A stretch of DNA of 64,000 nucleotides, taken from the NCBI GenBank assembly GCA_017936925.1, contig JAGBEP010000019.1, positions 64,508 through 128,507 of the forward strand, written 5' to 3'. The stretch's first letter is position 1, and each line of letters opens with the position of its first letter. The position numbers and the translations under genes are program-made. This stretch comes from Clostridia bacterium (lineage in GTDB: Bacteria; Bacillota; Clostridia; TANB77; CAG-508). Below, in pieces: positions 11,219 through 12,037 of this stretch. The notes below the pieces were generated by a model. That model did no database searches and had not been told where the DNA came from. It worked only from the letters and a program-made list of their open reading frames with translations.

Positions 11219-12037
11219 CTATAAATTAATAATTGGTATTCCTTGTATTAGCATTGCTATAATATTAGATATACATAAATAAAAAGCTATTGGTATATCT
11301 AGTTTTATATCTTTTTCTGCTAAAATATCACTTTGATCTATTTTTATGTTTCTTTTTCTTATTATTACACTTGCTGTTAAAGAAATCATTGTTAATACGG
11401 CTGTTATTAAAAATACTTCATATACAATAAACATATTCATATAGATGCATATCATTAAAATTTCAAGTAAATATTTGTATTTAAATAATTTATTTCTGTT
11501 TGTAAATATAGCTAATATGCATACTATAGCAAAGTATATAACATATTTATATATACTAATTACACTTATTTGGTTTATTATATATAAATATATAATATGT
11601 ACAAACCCTACTAGCGAACCTACTAATATTATTGGTTTGTTTATTTGTTTATTGTTTCTATCTATTCCCGCAATAATTACTAATGTTGTTGCAAATATCA
11701 TTAAATATAAGTATTCTGTTAAACTTTCTACTGTGATTGATGTTATTGTAGGTACTAAAGATATAAATATTCCTAATGATGTAAATCCCATCAAAGTTTC
11801 AATTAAAAAATAACTTTTACTAATTTTTTTTCCACAATATCTGCACTTTCCACCTAATAATATGTAGCTCCATACTGGAATTAGGTCAAAAAAGCCTAAT
11901 TTGTGTTTACAATTAGGACAAAAAGATCTTTCGTTTGTTATATTCTTTTTTTGTGGTATACGATAAATCGCTAATGTTGAAAAGCTTCCAAATACTGTTC
12001 CCATTATGAATATTATTAAGTATAGTATTATTTCCAT
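11219..12037 (-). CDS. pilD: prepilin peptidase homologue (A24 family), divergent
   Basis: N-terminal CPNC...CRYC zinc loop (FCPNCKHKLGFFDLIPVWSYILLGGKCRYCGKKI). First Asp motif IAGIDRNNKQI. C-terminal DIPIAFYL resembles IPFGPFL. No GxGD found. Confidence 0.75.
   Translation of the reverse strand: MEIILYLIIFIMGTVFGSFSTLAIYRIPQKKNITNERSFCPNCKHKLGFFDLIPVWSYILLGGKCRYCGKKISKSYFLIETLMGFTSLGIFISLVPTITSITVESLTEYLYLMIFATTLVIIAGIDRNNKQINKPIILVGSLVGFVHIIYLYIINQISVISIYKYVIYFAIVCILAIFTNRNKLFKYKYLLEILMICIYMNMFIVYEVFLITAVLTMISLTASVIIRKRNIKIDQSDILAEKDIKLDIPIAFYLCISNIIAMLIQGIPIINL

Follow-up and report, generated by a model that had tools for sequence, protein, structure and literature searches.

A PilD-derived protein without the GxGD protease motif in the pilus operons of a gut Clostridia family, and an unlinked canonical A24 peptidase

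The nearest known system to the locus described here is PilD/XcpA of Pseudomonas aeruginosa, a bifunctional prepilin peptidase/N-methyltransferase (MEROPS A24A) that combines the domains PF06750 and PF01478. Peptidase-only A24 enzymes (e.g., TadV and FlaK) are textbook knowledge. Methylation by P. aeruginosa PilD, unlike cleavage, requires zinc, the four cysteines, and the Gly and basic residue beside the third Cys (Aly et al., 2013, PMC3584216; see also PMC10191384), and prepilin peptidases can be shared among systems and encoded apart from them (PMC6668835). What pilin N-methylation does, and where PilD carries its methyltransferase site, are questions that have stood open for over 40 years (Pelicic, 2023, PMC10191384).

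The window (the whole stretch of DNA that was analyzed, 64,000 nucleotides in length) contains a complete type IV pilus operon of the T4aP-like, monoderm kind on the minus strand that comprises, in order, genes for a PilM/N-like fusion, a PilO-like protein, a bitopic protein, a pilin, a PilD-like protein, a pilin-like protein, PilB, PilT, and PilC. The features referred to below are as follows, with a slash preceding residue +1 of the pilins.

14022-15674, minus strand: PilM/N-like fusion gene, upstream in the operon (ORF, Pfam)
13169-13999, minus strand: PilO-like gene, upstream in the operon (ORF, Pfam)
12626-13165, minus strand: gene for a bitopic protein, upstream in the operon (ORF)
12114-12554, minus strand: major pilin gene directly upstream of the PilD-like gene, MKNQKG/ITLVALV..., with Ala for Glu at +5 (Pfam N_methyl, 24 bits)
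12067-12103, no strand assigned: 16-bp perfect palindromic hairpin between the pilin and PilD-like genes (terminator-like score on the plus strand, followed by a T-run)
11219-12037, minus strand: PilD-derived gene, 272 aa, with an A24_N zinc-finger module and a degenerate A24 membrane domain without GxGD (ORF, Pfam, hhalign, AF2)
11753-12037, minus strand: N-terminal module of that gene, residues 1-95, comprising TM1, the cytoplasmic zinc finger, and TM2 (PF06750, 5e-29)
11834-11920, minus strand: CPNC (40-43)...GGKCRYC (62-68), the four zinc-ligand Cys and the Gly-Lys beside the third Cys (roles per PMC3584216)
11660-11662, minus strand: codon of D126, position of the first catalytic Asp (matches D102 of the canonical paralog in helix position)
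11459-11464, minus strand: E192 and I193 codons, where TM6 starts on the cytoplasmic side and GxGD would be expected (hhalign)
10049-11206, minus strand: 385-aa pilin-like gene directly downstream, NNNG/FTGQD, with Asp at +5 (ORF)
8357-10000, minus strand: PilB gene (Pfam T2SSE/T2SSF)
7218-8336, minus strand: PilT gene (Pfam T2SSE/T2SSF)
5835-7205, minus strand: PilC gene (Pfam T2SSE/T2SSF)

The PilD-like open reading frame starts with ATG, is preceded by an AAGGAG ribosome-binding site, and is separated from the next gene by 12 nt. The hairpin upstream of it may act as an attenuator that yields surplus pilin transcript. Operon synteny is kept in approximately 80 related loci, and the PilD-like gene fills the pilD slot beside the pilin genes in every operon; the major pilin encoded at 12114-12554 is its presumed substrate. 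A whole-genome BLAST search of the source genome (1.72 Mb, 97.6% complete) identified one PilB/PilT/PilC set only.

From its letters, the initial annotation had described the 272-aa protein as a prepilin peptidase homolog that lacks the GxGD motif. The strings on which that description relied, CPNC...CRYC, IAGIDRNN (with D126), KYKYLLEILM (with E192), and DIPIAFYL, are all found in the protein, and the claimed absence of a GD dipeptide holds throughout its length. Five of the Asp residues had been listed correctly (D126, D234, D237, D243, and D247); D51, in the zinc-finger domain, had been left out. The full complement of acidic residues is thus Asp at 51, 126, 234, 237, 243, and 247 and Glu at 36, 80, 104, 108, 192, 207, and 241. 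Pfam places A24_N_bact at residues 11-92 (5e-29; 100.6 bits versus a cut-off of 23), a segment that holds the methylation determinants C40, C43, C65, and C68 (CxxC-x21-CxxC), G63, and K64. A search of the same protein for Peptidase_A24 (PF01478) yielded no Pfam match even at E <= 1 (gathering threshold, 26.5 bits), and NCBIfam and PDB sequence searches with it returned nothing relevant. When a profile of 53 family members was aligned to a profile of 34 canonical A24 enzymes with hhalign, the two matched over their full length (probability 100, E = 4.5e-57), as did the C-terminal domain on its own (probability 98, E = 2.7e-13, 154 columns). The C-terminal membrane domain is homologous to the A24 peptidase domain.

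In the profile alignment, D126 pairs with the first catalytic Asp and corresponds to D102 of the canonical paralog, the second Gly of GxGD falls over E192, and the canonical second catalytic Asp falls over I193. The alignment therefore pairs the second catalytic residue with no conserved Asp, in agreement with the reported lack of GxGD. The motif register differs by 1-3 residues among three alignments, with MAFFT auto placing E192 under the canonical Asp and MAFFT L-INS-i, with a two-residue gap, matching it to the first Gly. A GxGD-bearing intermediate, P0171 (IAGIDKENYMIPD...VPIGLGDIKY), was used to fix the register. The variant P0067 (YPIEVLL) has the same spacing from the first Asp as P0171 (VPIGLGDIKY): the two are equally spaced up to 'PI', Glu replaces the first or second Gly, and two residues are lost. 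Because these intermediate sequences space alike the register is fixed, and no parsimonious register aligns an Asp. The GxG, the Lys of GDxKL, IPD, and PFGP are all degenerate or lost together in the variant. These data confirm the observation of a PilD homolog without the second catalytic Asp. P0171, the closest GxGD-bearing relative, lies on a contig (L123) that is correctly translated only with TGA read as Trp (code 4), and the pilin downstream of it has the canonical Glu5 (G/YSLIE).

The GxGD-less form holds the pilD slot in approximately 110 species of a family of small-genome gut Clostridia (CAG-508/CAG-440 type). A word-based search recovered 1400 protein relatives, the best 120 of which carry PF06750 alone or no domain, and an exhaustive search recovered 49 cluster representatives below 1e-30. 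The named records, which have genomes of 1-1.9 Mb, are from uncultured gut Clostridia (e.g., Clostridium sp. CAG:508 and CAG:440). Conservation was evaluated across 109 species-level copies, all of them from pilus operons. GxGD was detected in 0 of these 109 operon homologs, so its absence is not due to chance or sequencing error. Conservation is strongest in the N-module (residues 1-95; column conservation of 0.76 versus 0.53 elsewhere) and weakest in the TM6 region. The region near residue 193 scores 0.47, under the C-domain mean of 0.53, whereas in canonical PilDs the region near the second Asp scores 0.52, over a C-domain mean of 0.39. The conservation pattern is thus inverted relative to canonical enzymes, in which the GxGD region is the conservation peak.

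Phylogenetic reconstruction places the GxGD-less operon copies in one clade (85 rows; SH-like support of 92) with sister lineages that carry GxGD. Beside this main clade, GxGD was lost independently in P0170 (SFGIIKY), in the P0190 clade, and in a clade of A24_N-pilin fusions, with the zinc finger kept throughout. The fusion clade (P0177, P0181, P0208, and relatives; a 13-row sister clade) joins A24_N directly to a pilin-like module and has no peptidase domain of any kind. Its A24_N part comprises TM1, the zinc finger, TM2, and TM3, and its pilin part (...SKKG/VFISELVIA) has its own class III signal with Glu5 present.

A second A24 gene, which the initial annotation had proposed to look for elsewhere in the genome, does exist. 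The source genome has exactly one match to PF01478, a canonical peptidase with the motif GMGDVKL that is located outside the window on another contig (G000 C26:96793-97569; L001:1234-2010). This orphan A24 is 258 aa in length, scores 70-73 bits against PF01478, and carries IDFKKQIIPN and IPFGPF in addition to GMGDVKL; it is without the Cys motifs and has a 26-residue deletion at the place of the zinc finger. Its neighbors are a YqeG-like phosphatase gene and a Xaa-Pro aminopeptidase gene, and it has more than 5600 homologs, of which the best 120 listed all carry PF01478 alone. A second pilus, Com, or Tad system was considered as the owner of the orphan A24 and was rejected, given the single PilB/PilT/PilC set in the source genome.

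The distribution of both genes was then compiled across 71 genomes of the same family (50 genera), where counts from such related genomes are descriptive and do not amount to a statistical test. The orphan A24 was identified in 69 of the 71 genomes, including the source genome, A24_N in 62, and PilB in 57; the full-length variant ORF is intact in 62 genomes that span approximately 43 genera. Among PilB-encoding genomes, A24_N is present in 57 of 57 and the orphan A24 in 56 of 57, with the exception being 91% complete. The A24_N and Peptidase_A24 domains never occur in one gene among the 71 genomes. Nine genomes lack A24_N; PilB is absent from all nine as well, eight retain the orphan A24, and four (each 100% complete) are also without an N_methyl match. 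The orphan A24 is thus kept in the absence of PilB or detectable pilins and is therefore a housekeeping-like enzyme rather than a dedicated pilus partner. In three PilB-encoding genomes the orphan A24 is apparently frameshifted: G002 (circular MAG OZ007016; L087), where a single frameshift lies inside the GFGDVKL motif, G007 (L139), and G024 (L140). These frameshifts may be assembly errors, and their relationship to an acid at position 192 of the operon protein is mixed, with Asp at 192 in two of the three genomes and three cases only to compare.

We consider it somewhat probable that the operon gene encodes a PilD-derived pseudo-peptidase that methylates or otherwise handles pilins, with cleavage of their leaders left to the orphan A24. 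Under this model, the operon PilD descendant would be a pseudo-prepilin-peptidase that no longer acts as a GxGD aspartic protease. Its intact zinc-finger module, judged from the residues that it retains, would most likely bind pilins at the cytoplasmic membrane face and N-methylate them, and leader cleavage would fall to the canonical, zinc-finger-less A24 on contig C26. The classical bifunctional PilD would then have been split, with its two activities placed in two proteins through complementary degeneration of two PilD-type genes. D126 may hold the pilin N-terminus, and the degenerate membrane domain would serve as a non-catalytic holder with a further, non-proteolytic role. What follows directly from the data is that the zinc-finger module tracks the pilus and that the residues known to matter for methylation are kept, namely the four Cys in 109 of 109 species, K64 in 107, and G63 in 104.

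An alternative, which we judge unlikely, is that the protein is still the prepilin peptidase of its operon and acts through a carboxylate pair formed by D126 and E192, possibly as an adaptation to pilins with Ile at +1 and Ala at +5; in other subclades, E128 could be the second carboxylate. The place of the gene beside the pilins in every operon would suit such an enzyme, as would the D126 column, which is Asp in 94 species and Glu in 12 (acidic in 106 of 109, or 97%). Position 192 is always Glu or Asp in the window's own subclade (approximately 45 clusters), and E192 lies no more than one residue from the canonical Asp column, at the cytoplasmic end of TM6. TM6-8 are under purifying selection (dN/dS of 0.16). 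Position 128 is the only other conserved acid in the C-domain (Glu in 101 of 109 species; Asn in the window protein), and E128 is present in most members that have no acid at 192. The apparent orphan frameshifts in three PilB-encoding genomes, two of which have Asp at 192, point in the same direction. Across the whole family, however, column 192 is Glu in 28 species, Asp in 22, Gln in 19, Gly in 19, Ser in 9, Asn in 6, and Lys in 2, such that it is acidic in 50 of 109 (46%) and is Gln, Gly, Ser, Asn, or Lys in about half; the adjacent column 193 is aliphatic (Ile in 60, Val in 23, and Leu in 9 of 109). One genome (G009) has Asn at 192 with no orphan A24 found, although it is only 91% complete.

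The predicted structure of the protein also bears on a D126/E192 pair. The AF2 model has eight TM helices (pLDDT 88.5, pTM 0.87), and D126 stands three residues ahead of the cytoplasmic end of TM3, as does D102 in the AF2 model of the canonical paralog. In the paralog model, TM6 begins at residue 170 and D172 is its third residue, whereas in the variant TM6 begins at 188, is predicted to span the former GxG segment, and has E192 as its fifth residue. A Foldseek search with the paralog model, which served as a control, found FlaK (3s0x; probability 0.89, TM 0.59), whereas the model of the variant returned only chance matches in the PDB, with FlaK absent. The extension of a helix over the former GxG argues against a retained protease site, as do the joint loss of the helix-breaking GxG, the Lys of GDxKL, IPD, and PFGP, the absent PF01478 signal, and the zinc-less descendants described below, which have Asn, Ser, or Gln at 192 and are still under selection. 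Furthermore, Asp-to-Glu substitutions inactivate other GxGD proteases such as presenilin. It follows from these data that a two-carboxylate protease at the canonical site cannot hold for the family as a whole. The initial annotation had left a choice between a variant active site, possibly co-evolved with the unusual pilin leaders, and inactivity; the family-wide loss of canonical protease function is favored, given an acid at 192 in 50 of 109 species and the disappearance of GxGDxKL, IPD, and PFGP.

Several observations nevertheless weigh against the preferred model of a pseudo-peptidase served by the orphan A24. Every member of the window's subclade has an acid at 192, and this residue is found at the appropriate depth in the membrane, where TM6 starts on the cytoplasmic side. 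The orphan A24 persists without PilB and without detectable pilins, and its three frameshifts, if real, leave PilB-encoding genomes without a canonical peptidase. The pilins are also without Glu5, a residue that reportedly promotes methylation in P. aeruginosa, as Strom and Lory are said to have found in 1991.

The source genome has approximately 10 pilin-like genes, including those at 12114-12554, 40703-41284, and 10049-11206 of the window. They start with G/[IV]T[LM], and at +5 the Glu is replaced by Ala, Ile, Val, Ser, Thr, or Met; the sole acidic residue at +5 is that of the 385-aa G/FTGQD protein. The same pattern is shared by approximately 80 related operons, in which the major pilin starts with ITL[VI]A and the minor pilins with FTMQD and [IV]TLTS. 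At the P0190 locus, where GxGD was lost independently, the major pilin also has Ala5. The association of Glu5-less pilins with a GxGD-less PilD homolog in these operons is real.

Two further properties of the pilin genes were observed. In many related operons, namely those of L006, L009, L011, L014, L019, L022, and L034, the major pilin (gene at approximately 5650-5900 of each locus) is just 71-89 aa, which amounts to roughly the N-terminal helix with a short tail and recalls the truncated Geobacter-type pilins. In two other loci (L021:153-5819 and L033:1324-5922), the PilD-like gene is directly preceded by eight or nine paralogous major pilin genes in tandem, whose N-termini are identical; such arrays may give antigenic or functional variation.

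Lineages that have lost the pilus allow the two modules of the protein to be considered separately. Forms without the zinc finger were identified only where the pilus genes have disappeared or are in decay (L121, L130, L131, G068, G022, G010, and G050). Four of these genomes (G068, G022, G010, and G050) are PilB-less and encode a 230-242-aa descendant beside a ROK gene, with the zinc finger cleanly deleted and Asn, Asn, Ser, or Gln at position 192. In L121 and L130, which belong to the window's sister group, the operon has shrunk to a pilin of approximately 90 aa and a zinc-less copy, located between spoVA and ROK. The pilin left in these collapsed loci has a low-complexity Asn/Thr/Glu tail and a dN/dS of approximately 0.9. 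L131, from the same sister lineage, represents an intermediate stage of decay in which PilB and PilT were lost first and only fragments of PilC are left. In a tree constructed without the zinc-finger columns, loss of the zinc finger requires four changes, at least two of which are forced by well-supported branches. Since the zinc finger is deleted exactly upon loss of the pilus genes, we argue that the N-module does pilus-specific work.

The membrane domain has a different history. The zinc-less copies have a dN/dS of 0.14 between L121 and L130 (neighboring genes, 0.04-0.24) and of 0.23 between G068 and G022 (neighboring genes, 0.11-0.19), and the window gene compared with that of a congener has values of 0.12 in the N-module and 0.26 in the C-domain; with dS at approximately 0.8-1.1 and hence near saturation these ratios are rough, yet each is clearly less than 1. 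The degenerate membrane domain is thus held by purifying selection after the pilus genes and zinc finger are gone, and it follows that the domain is constrained for something independent of the pilus, the zinc finger, and an acid at 192. Because the zinc-less descendants are still under purifying selection, methylation cannot be the only function of the protein, and the persistence of the membrane domain beyond the pilus genes and zinc finger in relatives indicates a further, non-proteolytic role. A fuller reading, that a complementary split of PilD took place across a family of uncultured gut Clostridia and that the dead domain represents a genuine bacterial pseudoprotease of the GxGD type whose function does not depend on the pilus, strikes us as possible, and we hold it tentatively.

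Selection in the absence of a pilus might instead mean that the protein is neither a protease nor a methyltransferase, with the membrane domain acting as a scaffold, a regulator of the orphan A24, or a handler of small molecules and the zinc finger acting as a tether to the pilus. The selected zinc-less copies in genomes without PilB or N_methyl matches (G022/G068, 0.23; L121 versus L130, 0.14) are consistent with such a role, as are the newly invariant residues Y150, Y165, Y168, Y189, and T216, which canonical A24 enzymes do not have. Yet the operon copies retain the determinants of methylation almost without exception (the four Cys in all 109 species, K64 in 107, and G63 in 104), deletion of the zinc finger coincides exactly with loss of the pilus genes, and positive evidence for any alternative activity is nil, which together make this reading improbable. 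That the gene is a decaying, functionless pilD relic or an assembly or sequencing artifact is barely credible: there are other frameshifted genes in the window (ROK and spoVAD) and operons decay in relatives (L131), but the ORF is intact in 62 of 71 family genomes from approximately 43 genera, dN/dS is approximately 0.2, there are 1400 database homologs (the best 120 with PF06750 alone or no domain), and the AF2 model is confident (pLDDT 88.5), such that conservation and dN/dS effectively refute a pseudogene or artifact.

A full-text literature search found no description of a PilD reduced to its methylase module or of any pseudo-prepilin-peptidase, and a family-wide split into a zinc-finger PilD without the protease motif and an unlinked, protease-only copy has apparently not been described before. 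If the variant methylates pilins, it would represent a natural separation-of-function PilD in which methylation could be studied without cleavage. If the preferred model of a pseudo-peptidase is true, the protein would be the first bacterial GxGD-class pseudoprotease, and it would belong to a pilus system where Glu5, which is nearly universal, is absent from the major pilins. A consequence for annotation is that pipelines call such genes "prepilin peptidase" (one homolog is so named) despite the absent catalytic motif, while the actual candidate peptidase is an unlinked gene.

Among known systems, presenilin and signal peptide peptidase are GxGD proteases that share distant membership of the same Pfam clan (CL0130) and the ancestral two-Asp logic; unlike the variant, with which they have no detectable direct similarity, those families keep GxGD. 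The inactive rhomboid relatives iRhoms and Derlins offer a closer parallel, since they too have a polytopic intramembrane-protease fold without the catalytic residues, purifying selection, and new conserved residues, and by analogy the variant probably binds clients. The likeness is one of analogy only, as iRhoms and Derlins are eukaryotic and have a rhomboid serine-protease fold, whereas the variant derives from the GxGD aspartic class. With PilD/XcpA the variant shares an 8-TM architecture, a cytoplasmic CxxC...CxxC zinc finger between TM1 and TM2, the Gly-Lys beside the third Cys, the first Asp at the cytoplasmic end of TM3, a place in the pilus operon beside the pilin genes, and significant profile homology over its whole length. 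It differs in that the second catalytic Asp, GxGDxKL, and the PF01478 match are absent, IPD and PFGP are degenerate, and its presumed substrates are without Glu5 and have Ile as their first residue. Finally, the peptidase-only A24 enzymes (TadV/CpaA and archaeal FlaK/PibD) and the orphan A24, in which both Asp are present and which is recognizably FlaK-like, indicate that the modules of PilD can exist apart. The peptidase-only A24 enzymes are the mirror image of the protein described here: they are without the methylase module, through loss or from the outset, and retain the protease, and the variant is the reverse.
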